Sequence record: PZ445432.1
Strand: one strand, 5' to 3'
DNA length: 64,000 bases
From: a phage
The stretch's first letter is position 1; each line of letters opens with the position of its first letter. Positions 32,627 to 45,480 of the stretch are shown piece after piece. Position numbers and translations under genes: made by a program. The notes beneath the pieces were generated by a model that was not told where the DNA came from, searched no databases, and saw nothing but the letters and a program-made list of their open reading frames with translations.

Positions 32627-32679
32627 TAGATCAAATTTAAACAAATTCAAATCTCAAACTTCATATAAGGAAGCAAATA

Positions 32680-33318: not shown

Positions 33319-33760
33319 TAATTTAAAAGCTAGTAAATCGGTAGACGAAAGCCCAAGCATCTTACCTCGCAGCAGCGGTTGAAATACGAGGTTAAATAAG
33401 ACCGCTGACCATACTATAAAGTATAATCTATTGGAGATTATGTTTATTACATCAGACATTTAATCTGACACGTAAAAACAAAGCGTCGTTGATATTACCG
33501 ACACAACTTCAAAGATCAACATTTAAGTATGAAAGCTGAAAAGTTTAAAGAACTCAAACTTCTAAACTTCTAAAGCTAAAAGATGCAAAGTATTCGTTGA
33601 TGATTCAAACCCTAGATCAAAGGTACATGGCTCATAAGATATGGCCTGTGGCGCCTCTAGGCTGTTTATCGGTTTACTAGTTTCACAATTTAAAAATGTA
33701 TTTGCTAATTTATTAAGTTATCTGTATAATATATTTTTAAATTGATGAAACGAGGCTATT

Positions 33761-34582
33761 ATGGGTAAATTACAAAAACAAATACTACCATATATAGATT
33801 ATATCCGAGAAATTATAGAGTATAATCCCTATACTGGTAAATTATTCTATAAGCCTAATAAATATAAGAATAAAACTTGGCATACTTTATATGCTGGGAG
33901 AGAAATATGTAGTAAGAACTCTGATGGGTACATCAGAGTTAGTTTGCTCTTAGATAATAAACCCACAATTATTTATGGACACCGAATAGCGTGGCTCCTT
34001 CACTATGGGGAGGAACCACCTGCTATGATTGATCATATAAATACTATACCGTGGGATAATAGAATTATTAACCTAAGAGAGACAAATTTTAAGTTAAACA
34101 GACTTAATACTAACAAAACGGTAGGTGTAGAGCTGCTGCCAGAAGGATTTGTGTACAGCATTACATTAGGTGAAAAGTTTTTTGTATCCCCCGGCTTCCC
34201 CACTTTCGAACAAGCTAAAGTGGAAAGAGAAAAACTAGTAAATGGTTTATGTAATGCAGAAATTGGGAAGCAGACCAATATTCTAATAGACGATGTTAGA
34301 GATTTACCTGAAATGTCCATTATTTGTCGTACAGTTATAGGTGCGCTGGAACTATCAGATGTGTTTAGTTTCACAGGATCCTATTTATTTATGGACTCAG
34401 ATTTAGGAGATTCAGAGGTACAAGGAAAAGATTTATTAGATCATATACTATTATTAGGTCAAAGACCCCTAAAAGTGATTCTAGTAACATCTAATCCTGT
34501 TGACGCAGAGTACATGAGAGGTACTCTTACGTCTTATGGATACCGAGAAAATCCCAATAGATTAGAATATGATCTATTTTAA
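33761..34582 (+). CDS. HNH homing endonuclease
   Basis: GHRIAWLLHYGEEPPAMIDHINTIPWDNRIINLRETN HNH motif. Confidence 0.7.
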   Translation: MGKLQKQILPYIDYIREIIEYNPYTGKLFYKPNKYKNKTWHTLYAGREICSKNSDGYIRVSLLLDNKPTIIYGHRIAWLLHYGEEPPAMIDHINTIPWDNRIINLRETNFKLNRLNTNKTVGVELLPEGFVYSITLGEKFFVSPGFPTFEQAKVEREKLVNGLCNAEIGKQTNILIDDVRDLPEMSIICRTVIGALELSDVFSFTGSYLFMDSDLGDSEVQGKDLLDHILLLGQRPLKVILVTSNPVDAEYMRGTLTSYGYRENPNRLEYDLF

Positions 34583-34594
34583 GGAGTAAAAAGA

Positions 34595-35044
34595 ATGAAG
34601 GCAGCTTTGCTTTTAGTAGCTGCCCTTACCTTCAGCTTCAATAGTCATGCGACCTACGACTCAAAGCAGATTGATTGCATTGCAAAAAATATCTACTTCG
34701 AAGCACGAGGTGAGGGCATAAAGGGAATGACGGCGATTGCACACGTTACTAAAAACCGTGTTAACTCTGGTACTTTTCCTGATTCTTACTGTAAAGTAGT
34801 ATATCAGTCTAACCAGTTCTCTTGGGTATCTAAGAGACCAAAAGTTGATAAAACTGATGAGGCTTGGAAAACCGCCAAGAATTTAGCTAGAGTGATATAC
34901 TACGTTGATTCACCACAAGATCCTACACATGGAGCGTTATACTTCCATAGTGGTAAAGATAAACCGCGCTGGACAAAGAAGTTTAAGAAAACAACTAAGA
35001 TTGAGGGACATACATTTTATAAGCCTGTTGTCACTAAAACTTAA
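34595..35044 (+). CDS. secreted cell-wall hydrolase (SleB/Hydrolase_2-like)
   Basis: Signal peptide MKAALLLVAALTFSFNSHA, then NIYFEARGEG ... AHVTKNR ... YCKVVYQ.NQFSW blocks. Confidence 0.55.
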   Translation: MKAALLLVAALTFSFNSHATYDSKQIDCIAKNIYFEARGEGIKGMTAIAHVTKNRVNSGTFPDSYCKVVYQSNQFSWVSKRPKVDKTDEAWKTAKNLARVIYYVDSPQDPTHGALYFHSGKDKPRWTKKFKKTTKIEGHTFYKPVVTKT

Positions 35045-35052
35045 AAATTTAT

Positions 35053-35081
35053 TTGCTTAAATACTTAAACTTCTGTATAAT
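35053..35081 (+). promoter_or_regulatory. sigma70-like promoter
   Basis: TTGCTT, 17 nt, TATAAT. Confidence 0.5.
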
Positions 35082-35112
35082 ACTTTCATAAATTAATGAG
35101 AGGAAGCGAAAT

Positions 35113-35283
35113 ATGAAAAACTTGATCGTCATTGGTGTTAACACTCGCGGTATTCGTACTACGAAAACTGTTAAAACTTCTAACGTTGCTGAGATCACTA
35201 CGAACCCTAAAAAGTTTGATTTCGCCAAAGTCTCAGCAGTTATGACAGAACAATCTTTTAACCAAGCGTTAGGAATGAAATAA
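35113..35283 (+). CDS. hypothetical small protein (56 aa)
   Basis: ATG preceded by GAGAGGAAG; stop overlaps the next start (TAATG). Below the track's size cut-off. Confidence 0.4.
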   Translation: MKNLIVIGVNTRGIRTTKTVKTSNVAEITTNPKKFDFAKVSAVMTEQSFNQALGMK

Positions 35284-35726
35284 TGGGAGAGAATATTTTA
35301 GATGTTTTGCGTAGAGCTTTGCAGGATTCTAAGTTTAATGGTTCTGATAAAGAAGTCGCTAAAAGCTATCAGACCATAATCGGGGATCTTCAGCGTATTG
35401 ATAAAGATTTCATCACTTCTGAACAATTTGTGTCTTATCTCAAAGCTCAACTAAAAAGCATTAACCAGATGAAAGCTAAACTTCATGGTCAAGATCTTGA
35501 TAGTTATAGCTTGCAGTCCGCTCAGTATGAATACATTCTAAATAAGTGGTTGCAGGAGTATCTGCCTCCTCAGTTATCTGATACTGAGATTCGTAAATAC
35601 TTTGCAGAATTAGTTAAGCTAAACCCTGGAATTACAAAAGGTATGCTGATGAAAGCGATTAAGGAAGAATTTCCTGGGCGTTATGATGGTGGTACTGCTG
35701 CTCAGATTGCTGGCGAATTTAATTAA
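35283..35726 (+). CDS. GatB/YqeY-domain protein
   Basis: 147-aa ORF with the YqeY-like pattern (YLP..LS..E ... G..KG..M ... DG..A) next to the tRNA cluster. Confidence 0.55.
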   Translation: MGENILDVLRRALQDSKFNGSDKEVAKSYQTIIGDLQRIDKDFITSEQFVSYLKAQLKSINQMKAKLHGQDLDSYSLQSAQYEYILNKWLQEYLPPQLSDTEIRKYFAELVKLNPGITKGMLMKAIKEEFPGRYDGGTAAQIAGEFN

Positions 35727-35734
35727 AAATTTAT

Positions 35735-35763
35735 TTGCTAAATGCCTATAAATTCTGTATAAT
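35735..35763 (+). promoter_or_regulatory. sigma70-like promoter facing an ORF-free RNA region
   Basis: TTGCTA, 17 nt, TATAAT. Confidence 0.5.
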
Positions 35764-35769
35764 ATATTA

Positions 35770-36559
35770 ATAAATTAGAGAACAGCGGGCCGATTACGCT
35801 GAGTGCAGAATCCAAACCGGAGTGCATTGAATAGAGTCGGTGGGTTAGTTGTAAAACTAGTACACAGTGGGCGGCAATCCCGGTTAGTGGCTAGAACGTG
35901 TAAAATGGGGCGTCTGAAACCTCTCCCCTAAACTCTTCTCTAGTTTATAAATAGTGGGGTGTGGAAATCACTTATGTAGTAACACTGCCGATCTAGTATA
36001 AACGGTATTATCAAGCCGTAACTGGTGGAAGATGTAGGTTCGAATCCTACGATCGGTAAGAACTGGATAACTGGTGCTTTTAACGTAAAAGCTTCCGAGG
36101 TTAGTTGCGCACTGCCTAAACCACGCGGTAGTTGGTTCCAGACTAACCAACCAGTCTGCTGAATAGTTTTATTACGATTTAACTATGTCCAGGCTAAAGA
36201 AGAACTTTAGAAGGTATTCTAGGTGGTGAAGTTTTTCCTCCATATCGGAGTAGTTTTTCAAGCTACCAACAAAGTGGGAAATGCTGACATGAGAGATGTC
36301 ACTAATGGTGCACAATAGCACAGGTAATTCGCGATAACTCCTGTTGAGTAGCAGCAAAAGGCGGGAAGTCATGACCCCAAGCCTAACCGAGTCCTCAATA
36401 TACCGCAGGACATAACCACTAAGTCACCCTGACTTAAACTGGAAAATAATAGACGTTACTGTATTTTGTCTTGAAATACTTAATGAGTGAGACTTATGAC
36501 TCTCCCGGTATCGTCTGTATTTTTAAGAGTTTTTACGAGAGTTCTTAAAAATACTTAAA
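35770..36559 (+). ncRNA. ORF-free transcribed region, possible stable small RNAs
   Basis: About 800 nt with no plus-strand ORF, downstream of a consensus promoter; contains several hairpins and tRNA-like fragments. Confidence 0.3.
35987..36058 (+). tRNA. tRNA-like element (possible pseudo-tRNA)
   Basis: Acceptor stem GCCGATC/GATCGGT and T-arm GTAGG-TTCGAAT-CCTAC are intact, but no canonical D or anticodon stem could be folded by hand. Confidence 0.3.
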
Positions 36560-36634
36560 CGGGGTGTAGTCTAAGGGAGAGGCAGGAGTCTTCTAAATTC
36601 CTTTATGCAGGTTCGAATCCTGTCACCTCGGCCA
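36560..36634 (+). tRNA. tRNA-Arg (anticodon TCT)
   Basis: Acceptor CGGGGTG/CACCTCG, anticodon stem GGAGT/ATTCC with loop CTTCTAA, T-arm GCAGG-TTCGAAT-CCTGT, encoded CCA. Confidence 0.6.
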
Positions 36635-36668
36635 ATTTTATTAACTGTAACTAAAACAAAGGAAATAT

Positions 36669-37616
36669 ATGTTTAATACTAAAAATATGAAAGAACTGAC
36701 TTCTGAGCAAAAAGTAATTCGCACTATTAAACGTTGGGGTATTGGTTCTGTAGTTGGTTTAGCAGGTTTAATCCTAGCTTTTAATTCATATACTATTGTT
36801 TCTGATGGTACAGTTAAAACCCAAACATTTCTGGGTAAAGTAGATCCTAACCCAGTATTACCTGGTTTCCATCTTGTAAACCCATTTGCATCTTTCGATA
36901 CTTTTAGTACAAAAGATATTGCTGTAAAATTAGATAAACTTCAGGTTCCTAGCCAGGATAAGTTTAAATCCACTGTTGACCTGACTGTTATGTTGCAGTT
37001 TGATGGTTCTAAGGCACCGATCAACCGTATTAATGCAGGTACTCAGGATCAGGCGTTAGACAAATATGTTACTGAAAAATTACTGTCTACCATCCGTGAG
37101 TTTGGTAAGTCTGTACCTAAAGCACAAGATTTGTTTGATGCTAAAATTCAAGCACAATTACAAACTGCAATTCAACAGGAAGTTGAAGAGTATGCACGCC
37201 CTTATGGTTACACAGTTAAGCAAGTGTTCCTTCAGGATATTACATTGCCACCGGTAATTATGGAACAGGTACAGAATACCAAAGTTCGTGAAGAACAAGT
37301 TAATGCTGCGAAAGCTGAATTGGCTCGTGTTGAACAAGAAGCACAGCAGAAGGTTAAACAAGCAGAAGCAGATCGTGAAGCTCGTAACAACCAAGCTATT
37401 GCAAACGAACGTGATGCAGATGCTAAACTGTATGCAGCTAAGAAAGAAGCCGAAGCTAACGCCGCTCTGCAACGTACTATTACTCCTGAGATGATTCGCT
37501 GGAAACAACTAGAAGTTGAAATGACTCGTGCTCAGAAGTATCAAGGTGGTGTGCCTCAGACTGTAGTAGGTACTGGTTACGATGGTCAAATGATCATGGA
37601 TATGCGTAACAAGTAA
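36669..37616 (+). CDS. SPFH/band-7 (prohibitin/HflC-like) membrane protein
   Basis: N-terminal transmembrane segment, then a long Ala/Glu/Gln-rich coiled coil typical of SPFH proteins. Confidence 0.5.
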   Translation: MFNTKNMKELTSEQKVIRTIKRWGIGSVVGLAGLILAFNSYTIVSDGTVKTQTFLGKVDPNPVLPGFHLVNPFASFDTFSTKDIAVKLDKLQVPSQDKFKSTVDLTVMLQFDGSKAPINRINAGTQDQALDKYVTEKLLSTIREFGKSVPKAQDLFDAKIQAQLQTAIQQEVEEYARPYGYTVKQVFLQDITLPPVIMEQVQNTKVREEQVNAAKAELARVEQEAQQKVKQAEADREARNNQAIANERDADAKLYAAKKEAEANAALQRTITPEMIRWKQLEVEMTRAQKYQGGVPQTVVGTGYDGQMIMDMRNK

Positions 37617-37639
37617 TAGTTACACGTAATCTTCGAAGT

Positions 37640-37680
37640 AAGCCCTGTGTTCCCTGGAGAGCGCAGGGCTTTTCTGTTTT
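37640..37680 (+). terminator. rho-independent terminator
   Basis: AGCCCTG ... CAGGGCT hairpin followed by TTTTCTGTTTT. Confidence 0.55.
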
Positions 37681-37842
37681 AAGGTAGAGGATAAGTGTGT
37701 CTCTTTGGTCACTCAGCTATGACAAATACTTTACACTATATCACATTGAAAATCAAGTGGGGATAACAATTTTGGGGTCTATCCACTTACCTGCTACCCT
37801 TAAGCATCCTGTTATTTTCCTCTAAAAAGTTAAAAAATTCAA

Positions 37843-37871
37843 TTGCTTGAATGCTAAATTCTCTGTATAAT
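37843..37871 (+). promoter_or_regulatory. sigma70-like promoter
   Basis: TTGCTT, 17 nt, TATAAT. Confidence 0.5.
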
Positions 37872-37903
37872 ATACTTATAAATTTGAGAGAGAGGAATCT
37901 AGT

Positions 37904-38422
37904 ATGACTGTTGATGAACTAACAGAACATCTCTTATCTAGAGGGTTTGATACAGATAAGTATCATTGCTGGTTAAGTCCGGAAGGATGGCTAACAGTCC
38001 CGTTGTATGACTTCTCTGGGATGTTGAGAGGCTATCAGACTTATAATCCTTCTGCTCCAAAAGGTCATGGTAAGTGCCCCTTTGAAGCTAAATATTTTAC
38101 TTATTCAACTACACAGTGTGTATGGGGATTAGAAACTCTCAATGGAGATGAAAAAGTAGTATTGATTGCTGAATCTGTATTTAAGGCAGTTGCGTTACAT
38201 AACGCTGGTTATCCAGCCCTGGCAATGTTGGGTTCTTCCCCCGGAAAAGCATTGTTAAAGCAATTGAAATTATTACCTTTTAAATTGGTAGCTGTCGGAG
38301 ATAATGATCCTGCGGGTGAAAAATTTGCTAGAAAATTAAACGGCTTTGTTTCTCCTGTAGATGTAGATGAGATGTCTACCGAAAACTTGAAAAATTTTCT
38401 TGCTATGAAGCTAAATTTCTAA
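37904..38422 (+). CDS. Toprim-like domain protein
   Basis: VVLIAESVFKAVALHNAGYPALAMLG ... VAVGDNDPAGEKFARKL resembles a TOPRIM fold. Confidence 0.45.
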   Translation: MTVDELTEHLLSRGFDTDKYHCWLSPEGWLTVPLYDFSGMLRGYQTYNPSAPKGHGKCPFEAKYFTYSTTQCVWGLETLNGDEKVVLIAESVFKAVALHNAGYPALAMLGSSPGKALLKQLKLLPFKLVAVGDNDPAGEKFARKLNGFVSPVDVDEMSTENLKNFLAMKLNF

Positions 38423-38442
38423 TATAATATATTTATAAATTC

Positions 38443-38531
38443 GGAAGAATAGCATAACGGTATTGCAGCAGATTGCTAATCTGTCGGTTTGAAATATAGC
38501 CTTGTGGGTTCGATTCCCACTTCTTCCGCCA
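38443..38531 (+). tRNA. tRNA-Ser (anticodon GCT), type II
   Basis: Acceptor GGAAGAA/TTCTTCC, 3-bp D stem, anticodon loop TTGCTAA, long variable arm, T-arm GTGGG-TTCGATT-CCCAC, encoded CCA. Confidence 0.7.
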
Positions 38532-38537
38532 AATTCT

Positions 38538-38615
38538 GGTTCTCAAGCTCATATGGTATGAGCACCCAGCTCATAACTGGAAGGTACGTAGGTTCGAATC
38601 CTCGGGGAGCCACCA
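38538..38615 (+). tRNA. tRNA-Met/Ile2 (anticodon CAT)
   Basis: Acceptor GGTTCTC/GGGAGCC with G-U pairs, D stem GCTC/GAGC, anticodon loop CTCATAA, TTCGAAT T-loop, encoded CCA; T stem has mismatches. Confidence 0.5.
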
Positions 38616-38634
38616 AATTAAATAAGGACAACTA

Positions 38635-38823
38635 ATGGAATTATTCATAGTTTCTGTTAAATTTGCACAAGATAGAGAACGTTCGGATGAGTTTAAACAA
38701 GGGTACAGACTAGTAAAGGCTACATCTGAACTCCATGCTATGGACAAAGTAGTAGACTATATGTATAATGTAGAAGATGTTTACTACGTCAATGCTTTAG
38801 AAGCCTCAAAAGTAATTGACTAA
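38635..38823 (+). CDS. hypothetical protein
   Basis: 62-aa ORF with RBS AAGGA. Confidence 0.45.
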   Translation: MELFIVSVKFAQDRERSDEFKQGYRLVKATSELHAMDKVVDYMYNVEDVYYVNALEASKVID

Positions 38824-38832
38824 GGAGACTAT

Positions 38833-39018
38833 ATGTCTAAGTTTCAAGAACTCAAGCAAGAGCTAGAAGAATGTGCCTGCCCTGAGTGTAGAGGAATTGG
38901 TGAAAGTTCTGATGCAGAAGCAGTGGATACTTTTTGCAATATCTGGGTTTGCCCAAATTGCAAGGGTACAGGTATTAATCCTAACTGTGGTATTTCTCTA
39001 GATATTGAAAGAGGATAA
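38833..39018 (+). CDS. hypothetical zinc-ribbon protein
   Basis: CPECRG ... CPNCKG double CxxC; RBS AAGGAG. Confidence 0.45.
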   Translation: MSKFQELKQELEECACPECRGIGESSDAEAVDTFCNIWVCPNCKGTGINPNCGISLDIERG

Positions 39019-39120
39019 TACCTGTGAAACTAAAAGATTATTATATTGGTTGGTTTGTGGGACTAGTAGTAGGATTTTCACTAGGCTATAATATGTATCA
39101 ACTAATAAACTGATTACATG

Positions 39121-39193
39121 GGGGTGTAATCGAATTGGCATAGGTACTGTACTTAAAATTCAGGTTTTGTGGGTTCGAATCCCAGCGAGGCGT
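39121..39193 (+). tRNA. tRNA-like element (anticodon-like loop TAA; acceptor stem does not pair)
   Basis: Good T-arm (GTGGG-TTCGAAT-CCCAG) and anticodon-like hairpin CTGTA-CTTAAAA-TTCAG, but no 5'/3' acceptor pairing found; a -10 TATAAT lies upstream. Confidence 0.25.
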
Positions 39194-39241
39194 AACTGCC
39201 TGGTGTGATAGAGGCATCATTCCACTAATATTGGAAAACTA

Positions 39242-39472
39242 ATGAAACGAAAATTAAAAAAATCTTATATAATTAAGATAAATAAGCTAAGAAGTAGGGC
39301 AAAAGGATGGCCACTTCGGATATTAATTGCGGATAACCATATTAGATACCATGCGGAACAACGTCATTATAAACAGTGGGAGTCATACTGCCGCTCAAAA
39401 GCAGGTCGTTTAGATGGATCTTATGAGTTTCTATTTGGTAAGAAGCCTACTAGAGTAGCTTTAGGTAATTAA
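39242..39472 (+). CDS. hypothetical basic protein
   Basis: 76-aa ORF. Confidence 0.4.
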   Translation: MKRKLKKSYIIKINKLRSRAKGWPLRILIADNHIRYHAEQRHYKQWESYCRSKAGRLDGSYEFLFGKKPTRVALGN

Positions 39473-39477
39473 TACTT

Positions 39478-39568
39478 GGAAGAGCAAATCGAATTGGCGA
39501 CGAAAACCGCTTGGAAAGTGGCTGACCGGTAAAACGGCTTGAGAGTTCAAATCTCTCCTCTTCCGCCA
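39478..39568 (+). tRNA. tRNA-Ser (anticodon GGA), type II
   Basis: Acceptor GGAAGAG/CTCTTCC, anticodon loop TTGGAAA, long variable arm, T-arm GAGAG-TTCAAAT-CTCTC, encoded CCA. Confidence 0.6.
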
Positions 39569-39580
39569 AACAATTTATAT

Positions 39581-39675
39581 GGTAGGTCAATCCAACGGCT
39601 GGCGCTGGACTCCGACTTGAAATCGGTTGATCGTAGTGATACGGTGTAAGGGTTCGATCCCCTTACCTACCTCCA
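39581..39675 (+). tRNA. tRNA-Ser (anticodon TGA), type II
   Basis: Perfect acceptor GGTAGGT/ACCTACC, anticodon loop CTTGAAA, variable-arm hairpin CGTA-GTGA-TACG, T-arm AAGGG-TTCGATC-CCCTT, encoded CCA; D-loop unusually long. Confidence 0.5.
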
Positions 39676-39812
39676 AATCTTGAAGTATGCCGGAATCGGT
39701 AGACGGGGCTGCCTAAAAGGTTTATAGGGAACATCCACTCCCTGCAACATACCTCATAAAGCGGCTGAGATAAATGGTCTATCTCGTGAAGGTTCAAGTC
39801 CTTCTGCTTCTT
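39676..39812 (+). other. tRNA-like or structured RNA region, unresolved
   Basis: Contains a T-arm-like hairpin GAAGG-TTCAAGT-CCTTC and D-loop-like AATCGGTAGA, but no acceptor pairing could be found. Confidence 0.2.
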
Positions 39813-39927
39813 GATACATCTATGGCTCAAAGTGTAACGGTGCTATTTGATGCTCTTGGTAAGACTTCCCCGACATGCGTTCGGGAGTAAGCTGCTAAGA
39901 CTAGAGTAGAAGAGTTTCTGAGAGCCG

Positions 39928-40046
39928 CCACAATTGAAAATTCGTACTCGTCTTGAGCTGCGTGCAATAGGAGATAACTTGATTAGTATTCTAGAACATG
40001 CTAATTGAGGATGGTTTCGCTAACCCTGCGAGTTTTCAATTGTGGC
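39928..40046 (+). repeat. 13-bp perfect inverted repeat bracketing a 93-nt spacer
   Basis: CCACAATTGAAAA at 39928-39940 and TTTTCAATTGTGG at 40034-40046; the right arm overlaps the tRNA-His 5' end. Confidence 0.6.
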
Positions 40047-40117
40047 TATATCATAATTGGTTAATGATCCTGATTGTGAATCAGGCCTATGTGGATTCGA
40101 ATTCCACTAGCCACCCC
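40042..40117 (+). tRNA. tRNA-His (anticodon GTG)
   Basis: Acceptor GTGGCTA/TAGCCAC, D stem TCAT/ATGA, anticodon stem CCTGA/TCAGG with loop TTGTGAA, T-arm GTGGA-TTCGAAT-TCCAC, encoded CCA. Confidence 0.7.
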
Positions 40118-40143
40118 AAATTAACTTAAATAGGAAATAAAAT

Positions 40144-40341
40144 ATGGCTGATTTCTGCAAACAATGCTCCATTGATATGTGGGGCAGAGATACTGGTGAT
40201 CTTTCTGGTTTGATTACAGAAGCCGAAGTCAAAGAAGGTTATGGTGCAGTTGTGGTTTGCGAAGGATGCGGAGTTATTCGAGTAGATCATGAAGGCAAAC
40301 GTTTAGAAGAACCGGAAAATTTAGGAGAAACAAATGAGTAA
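40144..40341 (+). CDS. hypothetical zinc-ribbon protein
   Basis: CKQC ... CEGCG motif; RBS AGGAAA. Confidence 0.45.
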   Translation: MADFCKQCSIDMWGRDTGDLSGLITEAEVKEGYGAVVVCEGCGVIRVDHEGKRLEEPENLGETNE

Positions 40342-40570
40342 TGCTTTAATTAGTGAAATTATGTTAACACGTCTTGCAGAACTGCAAACTCTTCGAGATG
40401 AATCTCAGAATAACTTATCCTACCATAAACAGATGGTAGATACTCTTACTACTCGTATTGAAACTTACGAGCGTGATATTGCAGCATTACAAGCTCTTTT
40501 CTCCGTATCAGCACCAGATACGTTAGAACAGCCTGCTGTATCTCAGCCAGTAGAGACAGCATCTAGTTAA
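40334..40570 (+). CDS. hypothetical protein
   Basis: 78-aa ORF with RBS AGGAGA. Confidence 0.45.
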   Translation: MSNALISEIMLTRLAELQTLRDESQNNLSYHKQMVDTLTTRIETYERDIAALQALFSVSAPDTLEQPAVSQPVETASS

Positions 40571-40579
40571 TAGCATTTT

Positions 40580-40655
40580 TGGAGTGTAGATCAATTGGCA
40601 GATCGTCGGCCTCTGACTCCGAAGGTTCCTGGTTCGATCCCAGGCACTCCAGCCA
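40580..40655 (+). tRNA. tRNA-Gln (anticodon CTG)
   Basis: Acceptor TGGAGTG/CACTCCA, D stem GATC/GATC, anticodon loop CTCTGAC, T-arm CCTGG-TTCGATC-CCAGG, encoded CCA. Confidence 0.6.
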
Positions 40656-40661
40656 AATAAT

Positions 40662-40737
40662 TGGAGAGTAGTGTAACGGTTAGCACAACGGCCTTTGACT
40701 CCGTTAATGGTAGGTTCGATTCCTCCTTCTCCAGCCA
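40662..40737 (+). tRNA. tRNA-Gln (anticodon TTG)
   Basis: Acceptor TGGAGAG/TTCTCCA, anticodon loop CTTTGAC, T-arm GTAGG-TTCGATT-CCTCC, encoded CCA. Confidence 0.6.
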
Positions 40738-40744
40738 AAATAAT

Positions 40745-40819
40745 GCGTGATTAGTTCAGTGGCTAGAACAACTGGCTTCCAACCAGTAGACACGAGTTCG
40801 ACTCTCGTATCCCGCACCA
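40745..40819 (+). tRNA. tRNA-Gly (anticodon TCC)
   Basis: Acceptor GCGTGAT/ATCCCGC (one mismatch), D stem GTTC/GAAC, anticodon stem ACTGG/CCAGT with loop CTTCCAA, T-arm ACGAG-TTCGACT-CTCGT, encoded CCA. Confidence 0.65.
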
Positions 40820-40833
40820 AATAAGGAATCTCT

Positions 40834-41085
40834 ATGCACGTTTTTGAGTTTCGTAATAAAAGTACCAATAAACGAGTTATTGTTATTGGGGAAACATATC
40901 GAGCATATGAACAAACTGACGGCTCTGTTATCTTGAATGATGAGAAAGGGGGTTTTAGCTTTTATCCAGAAGAACCTTATGAAGAGTTTCGAAAACAATT
41001 TAACCTAGACTGGAGAAAGCATTTAAACACTGTTGCTTCATCTGTAGTACTGCCAACTACCAGTACTGTACTATCTAATGGCTGA
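40834..41085 (+). CDS. hypothetical protein
   Basis: 83-aa ORF with RBS AAGGAA. Confidence 0.45.
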   Translation: MHVFEFRNKSTNKRVIVIGETYRAYEQTDGSVILNDEKGGFSFYPEEPYEEFRKQFNLDWRKHLNTVASSVVLPTTSTVLSNG

Positions 41086-41242
41086 TAACCTAAAAGTCAA
41101 GATCGACAAACAAAAGAAACGTGTAGAAGTAGAGATTGGTGAAGAACGTGTAGCCTTCACCTTTGAATTTCTACAACAAATGGCAATGACAGTTATGACT
41201 GATAAGTCTCCTGTTATTGAAAAAGAAATCCCGTTGAAATAA
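41078..41242 (+). CDS. hypothetical small protein (54 aa)
   Basis: ATG overlapping the upstream stop; below the track's size cut-off. Confidence 0.3.
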   Translation: MADNLKVKIDKQKKRVEVEIGEERVAFTFEFLQQMAMTVMTDKSPVIEKEIPLK

Positions 41243-41250
41243 CGGGTTCT

Positions 41251-41337
41251 GCTGGGTTGGCAGAATGGTTGAATGCACCTGATTTGTAATCAGGAGGAGT
41301 AATCCCGTTGCAGGTTCGAATCCTGTGCCCAGCACCA
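41251..41337 (+). tRNA. type II (long variable arm) tRNA, anticodon reads TGT (Thr?)
   Basis: Acceptor GCTGGGT/GCCCAGC, 3-bp D stem, perfect anticodon stem CCTGA/TCAGG with loop TTTGTAA, variable-arm hairpin GGA-GTAA-TCC, TTCGAAT T-loop, encoded CCA. Confidence 0.5.
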
Positions 41338-41351
41338 ATTTAAGGACTATT

Positions 41352-41519
41352 ATGTTTAAACTGTTAGTAGTTATCTGGTATAGTCAATCAAATAGAGCGA
41401 ATACCTCCCACGTTATAGACTTTACTACTAAAAATGAAGCTGAAAAAGCATATGCTAATTTAATAGAACGCAATAAAGAATCTCGTAGTATAGTTTATGA
41501 AGTGACTAAACTTTATTAA
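41352..41519 (+). CDS. hypothetical protein
   Basis: ATG with RBS AAGGAC just after the tRNA; the track ORF begins earlier, inside the tRNA. Confidence 0.4.
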   Translation: MFKLLVVIWYSQSNRANTSHVIDFTTKNEAEKAYANLIERNKESRSIVYEVTKLY

Positions 41520-41527
41520 AAATTCAT

Positions 41528-41556
41528 TTGCTTTCCCTCTTATTTATTGTTATAAT
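41528..41556 (+). promoter_or_regulatory. sigma70-like promoter
   Basis: TTGCTT, 17 nt, TATAAT. Confidence 0.5.
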
Positions 41557-41586
41557 ATTTATATAAATTAATGAGAGGGAAACCAA

Positions 41587-41877
41587 ATGAAACGTTATCT
41601 TTCTGTTATGTTCCAAACCGGCGGCCAAAGATACACCTATGAATTTCCACCTTCCTGGAAAATCAGGGAAGGTGATCAAATAGTTGTGTTGACACCGCGT
41701 GAAGAATATAAAGTAGTGACGGTTAAACAAGTATTTCCAAAAGATCATGAACCAGCTATAGGCATCCGATATAAGATGATTCATGGCGTGGTTCGTCAAG
41801 TACCACGAACTGAGGTAGAAGTAGATAATACTGGAGAAACTAAATTCCATTATACTTCTTACTTAGACAGTGTGTGA
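41587..41877 (+). CDS. hypothetical protein
   Basis: 96-aa ORF directly after a promoter-leader cassette. Confidence 0.5.
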   Translation: MKRYLSVMFQTGGQRYTYEFPPSWKIREGDQIVVLTPREEYKVVTVKQVFPKDHEPAIGIRYKMIHGVVRQVPRTEVEVDNTGETKFHYTSYLDSV

Positions 41878-41892
41878 TGTAAATATTTTAAT

Positions 41893-41969
41893 GCTTCGGT
41901 AGCTTAGCGATCTAAAGCACTCGGCTGATAACCGAGAGATCAGGGGTTTAAATCCCTCCCGGAGTACCA
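41893..41969 (+). tRNA. tRNA-Ile (anticodon GAT)
   Basis: Acceptor GCTTCGG/CCGGAGT, D stem GCTT/AAGC, anticodon stem CTCGG/CCGAG with loop CTGATAA, T-loop TTTAAAT, encoded CCA. Confidence 0.65.
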
Positions 41970-42065
41970 AATCTAGGAATTAAGACTATGCGTCCAGGAA
42001 AGTTTAAAAAAGCTAGTTGGTCTAAAGAGTACAAAGAATACTTACTTAGCCTAGTAAAACGTAAT

Positions 42066-42141
42066 AGTTAGTTGGCAGAGTGGTTATGCGCCTCCTTCAT
42101 ACGGAGCGACTACAGTGGTTCAAATCCACTACTAACTACCA
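42066..42141 (+). tRNA. tRNA-Met/Ile2 (anticodon CAT)
   Basis: Acceptor AGTTAGT/ACTAACT, anticodon loop TTCATAC, T-arm AGTGG-TTCAAAT-CCACT, encoded CCA. Confidence 0.6.
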
Positions 42142-42154
42142 AACAGGAGATCTA

Positions 42155-42523
42155 ATGAAAGCGTATCAAAATCTTAAATCTGGCGTAATTAATATTGTTC
42201 ATAATAATCAGATTATTCAACTGTACTCTAAAGATGGTGAACTTAAACAAAAGGTTCTAGTTGAAGATCTAGATGGTATCACACCTCATTTTGACCCAGA
42301 ATCCTTTCGTGAAGTCAAAGTGGAAGTCGCCCCTCAAATTGAAGGTGGTCAACACCTAAATGTCAATGTGTTAAGTCGTGATCAGCTTTTGGATGCGCAG
42401 AAACATCCTGAAAAATACCCTCAATTAACTATCCGTGTTTCAGGGTACGCTGTGCGTTTTAACGCACTGACGCGTGAACAGCAGAACGACGTTATTAGTC
42501 GTACATTTACTCAGGCGATGTAA
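42155..42523 (+). CDS. grcA: autonomous glycyl-radical cofactor (GrcA/YfiD-like)
   Basis: C-terminus [12 protein letters not shown] ... [37 protein letters not shown] closely matches the GrcA/pyruvate formate-lyase glycyl-radical domain; RBS AGGAGA. Confidence 0.8.
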
Positions 42524-42604
42524 TGGGGCTTGGATACGGTTTCTACGAACTACGTAAGGTAGTCGAGCAAACTCCATTTATCTCCCAAGTTTTAGGAGAA
42601 ATGT

Positions 42605-42919
42605 GTGGATCGAGCATTAAGACGTCATCACCGGCAACGTGTAAAGAACAACCGCAAGAAGTATTGGACAGTCTTCCCACATGAAGAAAGCCCTAAACGG
42701 TTAGGTATTATCACTACTACTCCTTGTATCTGTTCTTGTTGGATGTGCGGGAACCCTCGCAAACACTTTAAGAATAGTAAAGCAGGGATGAAAACCTCGG
42801 AGATTAGGAAAATGGAAGCAATGATTACGGATATTTCAAATGATGAATTTGATGGCTTCGTAGGATTCGGGGAAGATATTAGCTCGGACTGTTTCGAAGA
42901 TGAGCTCCCAGGTCTATGA
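42605..42919 (+). CDS. hypothetical protein
   Basis: GTG start 6 nt after AGGAG; basic N-terminus and a CxCxC segment. Confidence 0.4.
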   Translation: MDRALRRHHRQRVKNNRKKYWTVFPHEESPKRLGIITTTPCICSCWMCGNPRKHFKNSKAGMKTSEIRKMEAMITDISNDEFDGFVGFGEDISSDCFEDELPGL

Positions 42920-42928
42920 TTAATAACA

Positions 42929-42966
42929 AACCCCAGCTATTGAATAAGTAGTCTGGGGTTTTTCTG
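42929..42966 (+). terminator. rho-independent terminator
   Basis: ACCCCAG ... CTGGGGT hairpin followed by TTTTTCTG. Confidence 0.55.
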
Positions 42967-43040
42967 TATACAGGTAGATAATTTATGTATAATAAAATTC
43001 ATCCACATTAGGTTAATTCAAAAGACTTAATGGAGGTAAT

Positions 43041-43388
43041 ATGAGCCGTACTTATCGTAGACAAACTGGTGATCAGTGGTGGAAGTCTAAAGCTAATTAC
43101 ACCCAGGGATATACTTTCCTCAAAGCAAGTGACTACTACATTCGTGTTACTTATGCTAAATCCTGGGATGAGGTAGAACAGGAAATGGAAGAAGCAACCA
43201 TTCGTAATGAGAAAAAGGATGGTTATAGCTGGAATTCTGTTAGTAAGAATGTTAAGTGGCATTCTAATAAAATGGTTCGTCAAGGAAATCGTCAAGAACT
43301 CCACCGCGTGATGAAAGACCCAGAAAATTACGACTATAATCGCGATCATGACATGCGTAAGCGTGGGTTACGGTGGTGCTATGACTAA
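43041..43388 (+). CDS. hypothetical protein
   Basis: 115-aa ORF with RBS GGAGG. Confidence 0.45.
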   Translation: MSRTYRRQTGDQWWKSKANYTQGYTFLKASDYYIRVTYAKSWDEVEQEMEEATIRNEKKDGYSWNSVSKNVKWHSNKMVRQGNRQELHRVMKDPENYDYNRDHDMRKRGLRWCYD

Positions 43389-43405
43389 ATTCTGAAATAA
43401 TTCAT

Positions 43406-43434
43406 TTGCTAAACCTCTCTTTTCTTGCTATAAT
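43406..43434 (+). promoter_or_regulatory. sigma70-like promoter
   Basis: TTGCTA, 17 nt, TATAAT. Confidence 0.5.
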
Positions 43435-43464
43435 ATATTTATAAATTGATGAGAGAGGTTTGAA

Positions 43465-43746
43465 ATGAAAACTCGTCTAGACTGTGCTGTTCATGTTCTT
43501 GAACATGATGTTGTGGGAACCTGTATGTCTTATCACGAAGCAGGTCGTTTAATTAAAGAACGTGTGGCAGATGTATGTGGGTTGAAGATTACTGCTGAGG
43601 AAGCTGATGATCTTCTAGACCAGGCACTGGGGAAAACAGAAATATTCCTCTGCGATTCCTGCTCCTGGTGGTGTGAAGCTCACGAACATTCCTTCAACGA
43701 TTATGATGTATGCCGTGACTGTAATGAGGGGGACCATGATGAATAA
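43465..43746 (+). CDS. hypothetical Cys-rich protein
   Basis: 93-aa ORF with CDSCSWWCEAH and CRDCNEGDH segments. Confidence 0.45.
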   Translation: MKTRLDCAVHVLEHDVVGTCMSYHEAGRLIKERVADVCGLKITAEEADDLLDQALGKTEIFLCDSCSWWCEAHEHSFNDYDVCRDCNEGDHDE

Positions 43747-44038
43747 GTTTATTGTTGCACTGATGGTTTCAGCAGTTAGTTTCGGTTCTCTAGCATCTAC
43801 CAAAGTTTTTATGAAAAACGGTAATGTTAGGGTACAACAGAATGGTATTATTACCGAGTATGGTAAAGTGCGTGATATTAAAGAACGTAATGGCAAAGTA
43901 GAAATATATACTAATAAAAACTTCTCTACTCCAGCCGTTACTGTTAGCAAACGCGGTGAAATAACCACTCAACGTACTAATAGCTCTAGTTCTTTTACTT
44001 GTCGTTATGATTGCGACTTTGAAGGTGAAGATGAATAA
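43736..44038 (+). CDS. hypothetical secreted protein
   Basis: Internal ATG after GAGGGGGA followed by a signal peptide (MMNKFIVALMVSAVSFGSLAS); the track ORF starts earlier. Confidence 0.45.
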   Translation: MMNKFIVALMVSAVSFGSLASTKVFMKNGNVRVQQNGIITEYGKVRDIKERNGKVEIYTNKNFSTPAVTVSKRGEITTQRTNSSSSFTCRYDCDFEGEDE

Positions 44039-44381
44039 TTTAGATCCTAGAATTAAATTTGCAATTACAGAAATCCAAGATCAAATTGATGAAGACTTCA
44101 CTGTTTGGTCAAGGTCCGGTAACGGGGAATACTGCCAGCTTTATAGCATGAAAATGGGTATCTCAATTGAGCTTAATATCAACTCTGAAGGTAGAGTAGA
44201 AGCCCAACCCATGTTCAGTGTTCCAGGCTTCTCTGGATTTGTTGCAGGTATGAAATTGTGTCTACCAAATAACCATCTTCATCGAGTTATTTGTCAACTA
44301 GAGACTATTAAACACTTCTTGCCAGAAGGTAATATTAATGACTACTACCATGAAGTTGTAGCAGCTCATATGATGAAATAA
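44031..44381 (+). CDS. hypothetical protein
   Basis: ATG preceded by GAAGGTGAAG and overlapping the upstream stop. Confidence 0.4.
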   Translation: MNNLDPRIKFAITEIQDQIDEDFTVWSRSGNGEYCQLYSMKMGISIELNINSEGRVEAQPMFSVPGFSGFVAGMKLCLPNNHLHRVICQLETIKHFLPEGNINDYYHEVVAAHMMK

Positions 44382-44403
44382 TGCAAACGTCGGAGAGAAG
44401 AAC

Positions 44404-44981: not shown

Positions 44982-45091
44982 AGAACTCGCGTAGGACCGA
45001 GTTGCGTCACCTGCAACTGTTACGGATAAGGGAGTCGTGCCCCTTAGTGCGGTAAGTGGTGAGTTGGTCGCTGACCCTAACTGGAGATGAT

Positions 45092-45436: not shown

Positions 45437-45480
45437 GATTGACACTAAGTCAGCTTACTAGCAAAAGCAAATAATGACAA

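Follow-up and report, generated by a model that had tools for sequence, protein, structure and literature searches.

Positions 34595-42523 of the window (the whole 64,000-nt stretch of phage DNA analysed, record PZ445432.1) hold 12 intact tRNA genes. Each of them lies on the + strand and encodes its own CCA (12 of 12), which in every case (12/12) is followed by A(A/T)(A/T). The set comprises Arg, Ser (three), CAU (two), His, Gln (two), Gly, Thr and Ile. Between these genes lie some 17 small ORFs, five 70-nt promoter cassettes and three genes for stable RNAs; the coding genes, intact tRNAs and transcription signals are as follows.

34595..35044, +, SleB-like cell wall hydrolase ORF, 149 aa, left edge (Pfam Hydrolase_2, 88.3 bits)
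35038..35107, +, T5 early-promoter cassette, putative driver of the DUF7616 and YqeY-like ORFs (D1 repeat family)
35113..35283, +, DUF7616 ORF, 56 aa (Pfam DUF7616, 107.7 bits)
35283..35726, +, YqeY-like protein, 147 aa (structure; Pfam YqeY, 25.2 bits, slightly below the 27-bit cut-off)
35720..35789, +, T5 early-promoter cassette, putative RNAX driver (TTGCTA-17-TATAAT at 35735-35763)
36560..36634, +, tRNA-Arg(UCU) (ARAGORN, Rfam, CCA end)
36669..37616, +, SPFH/Band 7 membrane protein, 315 aa (Pfam Band_7, 69.2 bits; phrog_200)
37640..37671, +, hairpin resembling an intrinsic terminator, 13 bp before a T run
37828..37897, +, T5 early-promoter cassette (D1 repeat family)
37904..38422, +, Toprim-domain primase-like protein, 172 aa (Pfam Toprim_2, 25.2 bits, cut-off 22.1)
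38385..38454, +, T5 early-promoter cassette, ~14 nt 5' of tRNA-Ser(GCU) (TTGCTA-17-TATAAT at 38400-38428)
38443..38531, +, tRNA-Ser(GCU) (ARAGORN, Rfam)
38538..38615, +, tRNA with anticodon CAU (Rfam, 38.2 bits)
38635..38823, +, ORF, 62 aa (phrog_10617)
38833..39018, +, 61-aa mini-protein (sequence; phrog_6060)
39242..39472, +, ORF, 76 aa (phrog_7065)
39478..39568, +, tRNA-Ser(GGA) (fold, long variable arm, CCA end; annotated in MZ501074.1 and DT57C)
39581..39675, +, tRNA-Ser(UGA) (long variable arm, fold; annotated in MZ501074.1 and DT57C)
40042..40118, +, tRNA-His(GUG) (ARAGORN, Rfam)
40144..40341, +, 65-aa zinc-ribbon mini-protein, CxxC...CxxC (sequence; phrog_2210)
40334..40570, +, ORF, 78 aa (phrog_27262)
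40580..40655, +, tRNA-Gln(CUG), first of a compact trio at 40580..40819 (ARAGORN, Rfam, CCA end)
40662..40737, +, tRNA-Gln(UUG), second of the trio (ARAGORN, Rfam, CCA end)
40745..40819, +, tRNA-Gly(UCC), third of the trio (ARAGORN, Rfam, CCA end)
40834..41242, +, pair of small ORFs that overlap, 83 aa and 54 aa (DUF7293)
41251..41337, +, tRNA-Thr(UGU), 87 nt (ARAGORN, Rfam, fold)
41352..41519, +, ORF, 55 aa (MZ501074.1 annotation)
41513..41582, +, T5 early-promoter cassette (D1 repeat family)
41587..41877, +, ORF, 96 aa (phrog_4760)
41893..41969, +, tRNA-Ile(GAU) (ARAGORN, Rfam)
42066..42141, +, tRNA-Met(CAU) (ARAGORN, Rfam; tRNA-Met(CAU) in the DT57C annotation)
42155..42523, +, GrcA-like autonomous glycyl-radical cofactor, 122 aa, right edge (Pfam Gly_radical, 66.5 bits; annotation)

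ARAGORN made ten + strand calls: 'Ser(ACT)' at 35986, Arg(TCT) at 36560, Ser(GCT) at 38443, His at 40042, Gln(CTG) at 40580, Gln(TTG) at 40662, Gly(TCC) at 40745, Thr(TGT) at 41251, Ile(GAT) at 41893 and Met(CAT) at 42066. The Rfam tRNA model gave 11 matches above its gathering score, the extra one being the CAT tRNA at 38538-38612, which is annotated as tRNA-Met in MZ501074.1 and whose counterpart in DT57C is tRNA-Ile(CAU). Neither ARAGORN nor the Rfam tRNA model detected tRNA-Ser(GGA) or tRNA-Ser(UGA); both fold into long-arm cloverleafs with an encoded CCA and are annotated in MZ501074.1, and tRNA-Ser(UGA) scored 38.3 bits with the Rfam tRNA-Sec model, under that model's cut-off. Cloning and sequencing of the two tRNA-Ser genes of T5 date from 1983 (cited in PMC4810235). 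tRNA-Thr(UGU) is almost invariant among relatives, and combines G1-C72, C2-G71 and A73 with an unusual variable arm of 15 nt. Automated prediction (ARAGORN and Rfam) did not disagree substantially with the original prediction: all 11 of its hand-called tRNAs were recovered (11/11), tRNA-Thr(UGU) having been missed or entered as tRNA-like. Its tRNA island, with the tRNAs scattered among small ORFs, is upheld by these calls and the ORF map, and its YqeY-like, SPFH, Toprim and zinc-finger assignments were all confirmed by Pfam, Foldseek and CxxC motifs.

The left-edge ORF is a putative cell wall hydrolase in the MZ501074.1 annotation. For the ORF at 35283, a profile search of the PDB found 1ng6 (E=0.0025), and the best PDB matches of its AF2 model (pLDDT 89.1) in Foldseek were all YqeY (8xje, 1ng6 and 8xjg; probability 1.0, TM 0.53-0.68). 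The modelled structure confirms the YqeY fold; the protein, with homologues in T5-like phages only, might have a tRNA-linked role. The Toprim-like protein matches positions 146-337 of 435 of phrog_849 'DNA primase' (E=2e-62) and keeps in its sequence the E ('IAES') and DxD ('GDNDPAG'). The 61-aa mini-protein has two DnaJ-type CxxCxGxG zinc-finger repeats, with weak matches to Pfam Zn_ribbon and DnaJ_CXXCXGXG.

The 70-nt unit (repeat family D1) occurs seven times in 33500-43600, five of these within 34595-42523, and the seven cassettes share TTGCT(A/T)-17-TATAAT. A promoter scan found 26 sites versus 29.3 in shuffled sequence, no excess, so the basis of the promoter call is the recurrence of the 70-nt cassette, together with its presumed resemblance to published T5 promoters such as PN25. 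In Salmonella phage S114 the site equivalent to the cassette at 35720..35789 is annotated 'P16-17-like promoter'. The prediction that several units stand behind cassette promoters of their own was borne out; the cassette at 38385 leads almost directly into tRNA-Ser(GCU).

Identity of the locus and its relatives

A sequence search matched 502 phage records, T5-like almost throughout. Window positions 10000-34000 and 43000-64000 are 100% identical to MZ501074.1 by blastn, and a base-by-base walk over 32600-46000 found every base the same except for one 5,041-bp gap. On this sequence evidence, we identify the locus as the early-transcribed tRNA gene region of the T5-like phage HildyBeyeler (Bas33, MZ501074.1, Tequintavirus). 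We found no evidence contradicting the identification. The gene order agrees with T5_ev212 and DT57C; T5 (AY543070), DT57C (KM979354) and T5_ev212 (LR597659) have the same genes in the same order, namely SleB-like hydrolase, T5.082, YqeY-like T5.081, RNAX and tRNA-Arg, then SPFH protein T5.080, primase-like T5.076 and tRNA-Ser/Ile2, with tRNA-Ile, tRNA-Met and GrcA at the right end. The promoter cassettes and the stable RNAs I, III and X are likewise common to the window and these genomes, while the 76-aa and 78-aa ORFs are present in just a subset of relatives. The locus is not novel: it is the classical T5 tRNA gene region, under study since 1970. Its one unusual feature is the loss of 5 kb, with ten tRNA genes, between two short tRNA-derived repeats.

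The tRNA cluster of phage T4 also includes stable RNAs. The T4 tRNA set overlaps in Arg-UCU, Ile-CAU, Ser-UGA, Gly-UCC, Thr-UGU, Gln-UUG and Leu-UAA (PMC4810235). The eight T4 tRNAs are packed into two compact clusters, whereas the T5-type region spreads its genes over 6-14 kb, interleaved with ORFs and behind multiple promoters.

RNAX and other structured RNAs

35770..36559, +, RNAX, non-coding stable-RNA gene (misc_RNA rnaX annotation in DT57C)
35957..36096, +, conserved structured core of RNAX (RNAalifold)
35987..36058, +, tRNA-like module of RNAX (Rfam tRNA, 39 bits, anticodon arm skipped)
39678..39821, +, non-coding segment with a T-arm-like hairpin at 39788-39804 (fold)
39824..39930, +, RNAI, 107-nt stable RNA (zero mismatches to DT57C misc_RNA rnaI)
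39935..40040, +, RNAIII, 106-nt stable RNA adjoining tRNA-His (one mismatch to DT57C misc_RNA rnaIII)

RNAX is 97% identical to its T5_ev212 counterpart, versus ~90% for the flanking block, and in Rfam it matched only the tRNA family. Its core is made up of an invariant 5' block, helix P1 (35970-35983 with 36063-36076), an internal loop (AACACU/UAAGA), the tRNA-like module and a 3' hairpin at 36077-36093. Among 12 sequences from five lineages, the core was 93.5% paired versus 81% in shuffles (0 of 500 equal); 20 of 35 pairs had changes on both sides, and slid controls gave 29-40%. The tRNA-like module, enclosed by a covarying 12-bp helix, has acceptor, D and T arms, with a 3-bp stem and 6-nt loop at the anticodon-arm position; it has no CCA, its 3' end reading GGTAA followed by GAAC. 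The element at 35987, ARAGORN's 'Ser(ACT)', was rejected as a tRNA, having no real anticodon arm and sitting inside RNAX. The three tRNA-like elements of the original prediction were all located, at 35987-36058, 39120-39196 and 39678-39821, although it had not seen that one is a deletion scar and one belongs to this larger structured RNA. RNAI has a GGCUC/GAGCC terminal stem followed by GCCA; the segment at 39678..39821 has no counterpart in DT57C.

The left part of the region (a cREC-domain protein, the YqeY-like protein and RNAX) might be read as a tRNA repair or decoy module, with RNAX as a tRNA mimic that serves either as a decoy to nucleases directed at tRNAs or as a Y-RNA-like scaffold, and that is handled by the YqeY-like protein. 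We consider this improbable. The ORF at 33761-34582 does have a cREC_REC domain (E=1.3e-12), for which processing of 2',3'-cyclic phosphate ends in phage RNA-repair contexts has been proposed (PMC9503650), but that activity is a prediction. The YqeY fold is that of the GatB tail. In Klebsiella relatives, however, RNAX comes after the hydrolase gene and no YqeY gene separates the two. The covarying terminal helix of RNAX surrounds the tRNA-like module and leaves the middle arm free to vary; as in YrlA/Yrn1, this helix is built from distant 5' and 3' segments and encloses a tRNA-like domain that has D and T arms. The likeness to D. radiodurans Yrn1 extends to the 'anticodon' arm, which is shortened and carries a loop of 6 nt (PMC4201824). 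Although a GNCGAA-like motif lies 5' of the helix in 8 of the 12 sequences, the RNAX of the window has GUGGAA in its place. Unlike bacterial Y RNAs, RNAX is ~790 nt long, runs on into tRNA-Arg and is not matched by the Rfam models for Y RNA or YrlA; the window's phage does not conserve the Ro-binding motif, and no Ro60 gene is known nearby. E. coli is not known to have Ro60.

A 5,041-bp deletion between T-arm repeats

Compared with MZ501074.1, the window lacks 5,041 bp, cut out precisely between two T-arm repeats of 15 nt; this single deletion left two features.

39120..39196, +, chimeric inactivated tRNA-Leu(UAA) (alignment; Rfam, 23.3 bits, truncated model match)
39170..39184, +, deletion junction, sole remaining 15-nt direct-repeat copy, TGGGTTCGAATCCCA (base-by-base comparison with MZ501074.1)

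In the parent record MZ501074.1, copies of TGGGTTCGAATCCCA lie at positions 71652 and 76693, 5,041 bp apart. Ten tRNA genes (Tyr, Glu, Trp, Phe, Cys, Asn, Asp, Lys, Ala and Leu(UAG)) went with nine small ORFs, so that, set against Tequintavirus tRNA regions, the window keeps only 12 of the 23 tRNA genes of the parent. The 5' 65 nt of the chimera are tRNA-Leu(UAA), and its 3' part is a tRNA remnant that lies 5 kb off in the parent; with its 3' end replaced, the gene is dead. Recombination or replication slippage between the two 15-nt T-arm copies would have removed the 5,041 bp. The parent region contains many short direct repeats made from T-arms and promoter cassettes, and phiAPCEc03 has an independent loss at the same place.

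Might the gap be an artefact of assembly or data handling? The junction was not found in INPHARED phages, IMG/VR, JGI metagenomes or GTDB genomes, and it falls in a repeat, where assemblers can mis-join. A 15-nt repeat is, however, shorter than usual assembly k-mers, and two separate Logan assemblies share the junction: a 3,273-bp contig from ERR15816151 spans it and is 100% identical to window positions 37899-41171, and the assembly of ERR15816150 has the same junction. The outcome has the shape that a short-homology deletion predicts, and such deletions are classical in T5 (PMC11464382). An artefact seems to us very improbable, and, judged from these sequences, we take the deletion to be a real genome variant.

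T5 deletion mutants of the tRNA region are viable (PMC11464382), and that source describes comparable losses in T5Mos (8 kb missing), T5-123 (3 kb missing) and the collection of Glukhov et al. 2018. As in those mutants, a viable phage has here lost several kilobases, tRNA-Lys among them, from the tRNA region alone (PMC11464382); unlike in them, the parent is Bas33 and the end points are others, here base-defined within a 15-nt T-arm repeat. Since the variant propagates without half its tRNA genes, none of those lost is essential under its growth conditions.

Codon supply and anti-defence roles

The codons most enriched in the phage versus E. coli are AGA (11.5x), AGG (7.1x), ATA (6.9x) and CTA (5.8x), followed by TTA (3.1x), AGT (3.0x), GGA (2.8x) and ACA (2.7x). 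Readers of enriched codons among the kept tRNAs are Arg-UCU, CAU (Ile2 in the DT57C annotation), Ser-GCU, Gly-UCC and Thr-UGU; G34 tRNAs reach enriched codons through wobble only. When defence nucleases cut host tRNAs, those of T5 take their place, as published work shows: T5 tRNA-Lys neutralises PARIS, and with T5 tRNA-Tyr infection is rescued from retron Eco7 (PMC11464382, PMC10644984). The published tRNA function finds further support in PMC10264068. The variant should lack Lys- and Tyr-based protection.

In the mechanism that we propose, host sigma-70 RNA polymerase would start at the repeated strong T5 early-promoter cassettes, giving several polycistronic transcripts, each an alternation of tRNAs with small ORFs and the stable RNAs (RNAX, RNAI and RNAIII), and host tRNA-processing enzymes would excise the tRNAs, their CCA being already encoded in the genome. 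The tRNAs would add decoding capacity for A/U-ending codons, which are far commoner in the 39% G+C phage than in E. coli; the codon bias was computed, and from it we infer an effect on translation. They would also substitute for host tRNAs destroyed by anticodon nucleases, as the literature shows for T5 tRNA-Lys and tRNA-Tyr. Decoding supply and host-tRNA replacement do not exclude each other. Taken jointly, a T5-type region, this dual role of its tRNAs and a short-repeat deletion are very probably the best explanation of the locus.

The original prediction had proposed codon-usage tuning, which fits the computed bias but is not the whole story. On the classical hypothesis, which PMC10644984 and PMC10264068 cite, tuning is the sole function, and the tRNAs only supply isoacceptors for codons that the phage uses often and the host seldom; the top enriched codons are indeed read by the five kept tRNAs named above together with Leu-UAG and Leu-UAA. 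It is nevertheless doubtful as a complete account: Leu-UAG and Leu-UAA have been lost (codons enriched 5.8x and 3.1x) and the variant still propagates, tRNA-Gln(CUG) decodes a phage-depleted codon (0.61x), and anti-defence roles have been demonstrated for T5 tRNA-Lys and tRNA-Tyr (PMC11464382). During infection, moreover, phage tRNA expression does not track mRNA codon frequencies (PMC11464382).

Identity of the locus and its tRNA genes

A nucleotide search with the region (34595-42523, + strand) matched 502 phage records, nearly all of them T5-like phages of Salmonella and Escherichia. Escherichia phage HildyBeyeler (Bas33 of the BASEL collection, MZ501074.1, genus Tequintavirus) is 100% identical to the window over 10000-34000 and 43000-64000, and the offsets to this record on the two sides of the region differ by 5,041 bp. 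The gene order is the one found in the T5-like phages T5_ev212 (LR597659) and DT57C (KM979354), running from a SleB-like hydrolase, a DUF7616 ORF, a YqeY-like ORF (T5.081), the stable RNA RNAX, tRNA-Arg and an SPFH protein (T5.080) on to a primase-like Toprim protein (T5.076), tRNAs alternating with small ORFs, and a GrcA-like protein.

T5-coded tRNAs have been known since 1970, and 23-24 tRNA genes have been described in the T5 region (PMC4810235, PMC11464382, PMC10644984), which has been sequenced, annotated and deleted many times already. Since the locus is this region, the tRNA island that had been predicted from the sequence was known beforehand; it is real but ordinary, being a T5-type tRNA region in a phage already known and sequenced. 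As is typical for such a region, the tRNAs (12 intact) lie on one strand, here the + strand, among small ORFs (~17). The near-complete set of 23-24 genes is missing: 12 of 23 are left, with 10 deleted and one truncated. The original prediction had the anatomy largely right, and its ideas on function, though incomplete, were reasonable. It did not recognise which locus this is, overlooked the deletion scar and did not see what the tRNA-like elements are. The only points that go beyond existing annotation are the deletion variant of Bas33 and a covariation-supported structure for RNAX.

In the interval 35986-42141 ARAGORN called ten tRNA genes, each on the + strand; with the Rfam tRNA model eleven exceeded the gathering score, the extra one being a CAU tRNA at 38538-38612. 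The ARAGORN call "tRNA-Ser(ACT)", which falls in RNAX, lacks an anticodon stem that would back this reading, and we do not accept it as a decoding tRNA. Tandem long-arm serine tRNAs (GGA and UGA) escape both tools, here and in T5_ev212, so automated tRNA counts for T5-like phages are underestimates; the reference list of PMC4810235 has an entry from 1983 on the cloning and sequencing of the two T5 tRNA-Ser genes. The tRNAs and other stable RNA elements that call for comment are as follows.

tRNAs and stable RNA elements (all + strand)
39478-39568, +: tRNA-Ser(GGA), cloverleaf fold, CCA end, annotated in MZ501074.1 and DT57C
39581-39675, +: tRNA-Ser(UGA), cloverleaf fold, CCA end, annotated in MZ501074.1 and DT57C
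39678-39821, +: non-coding segment of 144 nt with a T-arm-like hairpin, between tRNA-Ser(UGA) and RNAI, absent from DT57C
39824-39930, +: RNAI, stable RNA annotated in DT57C; GCCA after a terminal stem, resembling the 3' end of a tRNA
39935-40040, +: RNAIII, stable RNA annotated in DT57C; abuts tRNA-His
41251-41337, +: tRNA-Thr(UGU), 87 nt; 15-nt variable arm, G1-C72, C2-G71, A73

Taking the ARAGORN and Rfam calls together with the two tandem serine tRNAs, we arrive at an intact set of twelve: Arg-UCU, Ser-GCU, CAU, Ser-GGA, Ser-UGA, His-GUG, Gln-CUG, Gln-UUG, Gly-UCC, Thr-UGU, Ile-GAU and a second CAU. All twelve have a genome-encoded CCA followed by A(A/T)(A/T). The 11 tRNAs called by hand in the original prediction were all recovered, Thr-UGU alone having been overlooked, and automated prediction shows no substantial disagreement with the hand calls.

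Going by the DT57C annotation, the CAU tRNA beside Ser-GCU would be Ile(CAU) and the one beside GrcA Met(CAU). The former (38538) has no blastn match in all complete E. coli genomes, and alignment with E. coli metT, ileY and the T5_ev212 fMet tRNA gave no decisive identity. The variable arm of tRNA-Thr(UGU) gives it a type II-like shape, unusual for a threonine tRNA, and the gene is almost invariant in T5_ev212 and phiAPCEc03 (KR422353.1). Because of this long arm we considered a mis-called tRNA-Ser, and rejected it since the anticodon stem-loop gives UGU cleanly; G1-C72, C2-G71 and A73 are of the threonine type. Alignment to the misc_RNA features of DT57C shows that stable RNAs I, III and X, which lie between the tRNA genes, are all present, RNAI and RNAIII with at most one mismatch. 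The 144-nt insert upstream of RNAI may be another decayed tRNA gene.

A 5,041-bp deletion and the function of the tRNAs

A base-by-base walk places window 32600-39184 on the Bas33 record at an offset of +32482 and window 39170-46000 at +37523, with no further difference in 32600-46000. The overlap at the junction (39170-39184) is TGGGTTCGAATCCCA, a 15-mer that the parent has twice, at record positions 71652 and 76693; the 71652 copy forms the T-arm of tRNA-Leu(UAA), and the 76693 copy lies in a degenerate tRNA remnant ~45 nt past tRNA-Leu(UAG). Lost with the deletion are the tRNAs Tyr, Glu, Trp, Phe, Cys, Asn, Asp, Lys, Ala and Leu(UAG) and nine ORFs (bas33_0092-0108). The scar at 39120-39196 is chimeric, and the 5' acceptor strand that it keeps from tRNA-Leu(UAA) is left unpaired. 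The tRNA region contains 37 repeated 15-mers, made of T-arms and putative promoter cassettes, so deletions of this sort are to be expected here, and viable T5 mutants with 3-8 kb missing in the region have been published (PMC11464382). Our evidence suggests that deletions in the central tRNA block recur in nature. The T5-like phage phiAPCEc03 (103.7 kb; locus 1191-1688) shows an independent loss of this block at about the same place.

Exact searches with the junction gave no match in IMG/VR, JGI metagenomes or GTDB genomes, nor did blast with the junction region among INPHARED phages. Logan assemblies of ERR15816151 and ERR15816150 do contain the junction, and they were located solely via a look-up with the neighbouring 76-aa protein; the ERR15816151 contig (3,273 bp) is identical to window 37899-41171. 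The deletion variant is real and has been sequenced at least twice. This stock of Bas33, a widely used BASEL phage, differs from the reference genome in lacking 10 tRNA genes, those for Lys and Tyr included, and the loss could alter the results of host-range or defence screens made with the variant stock.

Codon usage was compared between 61 ORFs of the window and 32 E. coli K-12 genes. The highest phage/host ratios were those of AGA (11.5), AGG (7.1), ATA (6.9), CTA (5.8), TTA (3.1) and AGT (3.0), followed by GGA (2.8), ACA (2.7), ACT (2.6) and TCT (2.3); the readers of enriched codons are Arg-UCU, CAU (Ile2 in DT57C), Leu-UAG, Leu-UAA, Ser-GCU, Gly-UCC, Thr-UGU and Ser-GGA. The most enriched codons are those decoded by phage tRNAs, and the bias fits the retained tRNAs in the way that the original suggestion of codon-usage tuning had it. 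As the sole function of the tRNAs, however, tuning is doubtful: Gln-CUG decodes a depleted codon (0.61), both leucine tRNAs for enriched codons are deleted and yet the phage survives, and anti-defence roles have been demonstrated. T5 tRNA-Lys, which resists AriB, the nuclease of the host defence PARIS, rescues infection, and T5 tRNA-Tyr does so against a second defence, retron Eco7 (PMC11464382, PMC10644984); a broader anti-nuclease hypothesis for phage tRNAs has also been proposed (PMC10264068). We take it that both roles, codon tuning and anti-defence, operate, and infer that the variant has lost the Lys and Tyr tRNA functions.

Proteins and putative transcription units between the tRNA genes

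The principal ORFs and transcription signals of the region are the following.

Protein-coding features and transcription signals (all within the region)
34595-35044, +: ORF, Hydrolase_2, 88 bits
35113-35283, +: ORF, DUF7616, 108 bits
35283-35726, +: ORF, YqeY, 25.2 bits (cut-off 27), match in the C-terminal part only
36669-37616, +: ORF, Band_7 (SPFH), 69.2 bits (cut-off 23.6)
37640-37671: strong terminator-like hairpin 3' of the SPFH gene
37904-38422, +: ORF, Toprim_2, 25.2 bits (cut-off 22.1)
41078-41242, +: ORF, DUF7293, 132 bits
42080-42523, +: frame with Gly_radical, 66.5 bits (annotated gene 42155-42523)
35038, 35720, 37828, 38385 and 41513: five copies of a 70-nt putative promoter cassette

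The YqeY-like ORF falls below the PF09424 gathering score, several close homologues have a precomputed PF09424 match, and its homologues occur in T5-like phages only. A profile of 22 of them matches B. subtilis YqeY (1ng6) over residues 18-139 (E=0.0025). The AlphaFold model has a pLDDT of 89.1, and YqeY structures fill the first six places among its PDB matches (probability 1.0, TM 0.53-0.68); an all-helical YqeY fold over the full length is confirmed. The GenBank names "recombination-related exonuclease" (many T5-like records) and "tRNA amidotransferase" (others) are unsupported by these fold and family results.

The SPFH protein scores above the Band_7 gathering score and has an N-terminal membrane segment, the hydrophobic stretch WGIGSVVGLAGLILAF. 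The Toprim protein aligns with the middle of phage DnaG-type primase profiles (phrog_849, E=2e-62) and keeps the conserved Toprim residues, the Glu in "IAES" and the DxD in "GDNDPAG"; searched against the PDB by sequence, it returned only noise. Two mini-proteins carry cysteine motifs, one of 61 aa with two DnaJ-type CxxCxGxG repeats and one of 65 aa with two CxxC pairs. Just upstream of the region, ORF 33761-34582 has an HNH_3 endonuclease part, which GenBank annotates as an intein, and a cREC_REC domain, for which the predicted activity is the processing of 2',3'-cyclic phosphate ends in settings of phage RNA repair; the C-terminal 100 residues of the ORF are 51% identical to an intein-less 105-aa protein of T5_ev212.

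The 70-nt unit occurs in seven copies between 33687 and 43460 and consists, in order, of an A-rich stretch, TTGCT(A/T), a 17-nt spacer, TATAAT, ATAAATT and a GAGAGG-type ribosome-binding site, an architecture that is presumably the one of classical strong T5 early promoters such as PN25. The counterpart of the 35720 cassette is annotated as a promoter in a relative's record. A generic promoter scan found 26 sites against 29.3 in shuffles; as this is no enrichment, the evidence for promoters is the repeated cassette and not the scan. Transcription from the 38385 cassette would, judged by its position, begin a few bases upstream of tRNA-Ser(GCU), and the 35720 cassette is the putative start of RNAX transcription. 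The putative transcription units would be DUF7616 with the YqeY-like gene; RNAX, tRNA-Arg and SPFH; Toprim alone; a long unit of tRNA-Ser, tRNA-CAU, ORFs, the inactivated leucine tRNA at the deletion scar, an ORF, Ser, Ser, RNAI, RNAIII, His, ORFs, Gln, Gln, Gly, ORFs, Thr and an ORF; and finally ORF96, Ile, Met and GrcA.

RNAX and its tRNA-like module

RNAX and its parts
35770-36559, +: RNAX
35957-36096, +: RNAX core
35987-36058, +: tRNA-like module

The module scores 39.0 bits against the Rfam tRNA model (RF00005, gathering threshold 29) only because the model skips the anticodon arm (18 nt). In place of the 5-bp stem and 7-nt loop of an anticodon arm it has a 3-bp stem and a 6-nt loop, GUAACU, and it is without a free CCA acceptor end, its flanks being paired in a covarying helix of 12 bp. 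It lies within a 790-nt non-coding stretch, annotated RNAX in DT57C, that is 97% identical to T5_ev212, compared with ~90% for the surrounding block. Counterparts of the core can be recognised in Epseptimavirus, Erwinia phage KEY, Klebsiella Sugarlandvirus and Pectobacterium phages; 32 IMG/VR contigs, 31 of which measure 104-123 kb, each have a single copy of a core motif, and RNAX is single copy in the T5-like genomes examined.

By RNAalifold, the helix formed by the flanks contains two 1x1 internal loops. Across twelve distinct sequences the RNAX pairing holds in 93.5% of cells versus 81% when shuffled, the structure having first been derived from a subset of the same sequences, and none of 500 shuffles reaches the observed value on any measure. 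Changes on both sides are seen at 20 of the 35 pairs, including 7 of the 12 helix pairs; slid controls pair at 29-40%. The middle arm, which stands in place of the anticodon arm, is lineage-specific: the 3-bp stem and 6-nt loop are found in T5 and Bas33, a regular stem with a GGG loop (Pro(GGG)-like) in KEY, a 6-nt loop containing UCA in some Epseptimavirus genomes, and a long, branched arm in Klebsiella phages. Two IMG/VR genomes have an unrelated hairpin in place of the module and keep the helix and flanks. Given the missing anticodon arm and CCA, the enclosing covarying helix and the variable middle arm, we conclude that the tRNA-like element does not serve as a decoding tRNA and instead forms one module of a larger structured RNA. 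The "tRNA-Sec/Pro/OTHER" call that gene finders make in hundreds of T5-like genomes is part of this RNAX structure.

At permissive thresholds RNAX matched no Rfam family other than tRNA, and a literature search for "RNAX" with "bacteriophage T5" gave no match. A match to the sRNA SpF41 (27 bits, cut-off 52) was discounted, since we attribute it to the tRNA-like part. In combining a terminal helix with a tRNA-like domain, RNAX resembles Y RNA/YrlA (PMC4201824), although the Rfam covariance models for Y RNA/YrlA gave no match at E<=10 in 35760-36565. Where the 5' strand of Y RNA carries the motif GNCGAAN0-1G, 8 of the 12 RNAX sequences have GUCGAA or GCCGAA, whereas the window and T5 have GUGGAA; from its sequence, the Bas33 copy does not appear to keep the Ro-binding motif. 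That RNAX, instead of being a spacer or a decayed tRNA, is a functional tRNA mimic on a conserved helical scaffold, working as a Y-RNA-like adaptor or as a decoy for host nucleases directed at tRNA, possibly with the neighbouring YqeY-like and cREC proteins, is a speculation to which we give little credence; the tRNA-like module would then be an exchangeable "head". A plainer possibility is that the helix serves as a processing signal of the RNase III type.

Adjacency of the YqeY-like gene and RNAX is not universal, since in Klebsiella phages of the Sugarlandvirus type (L042-L044, around 430-900) the core lies directly 3' of the SleB-like hydrolase gene with no YqeY-like gene between. Three short ORFs annotated at the RNAX locus in MZ501074.1 (bas33_0080-0082) are probably spurious.
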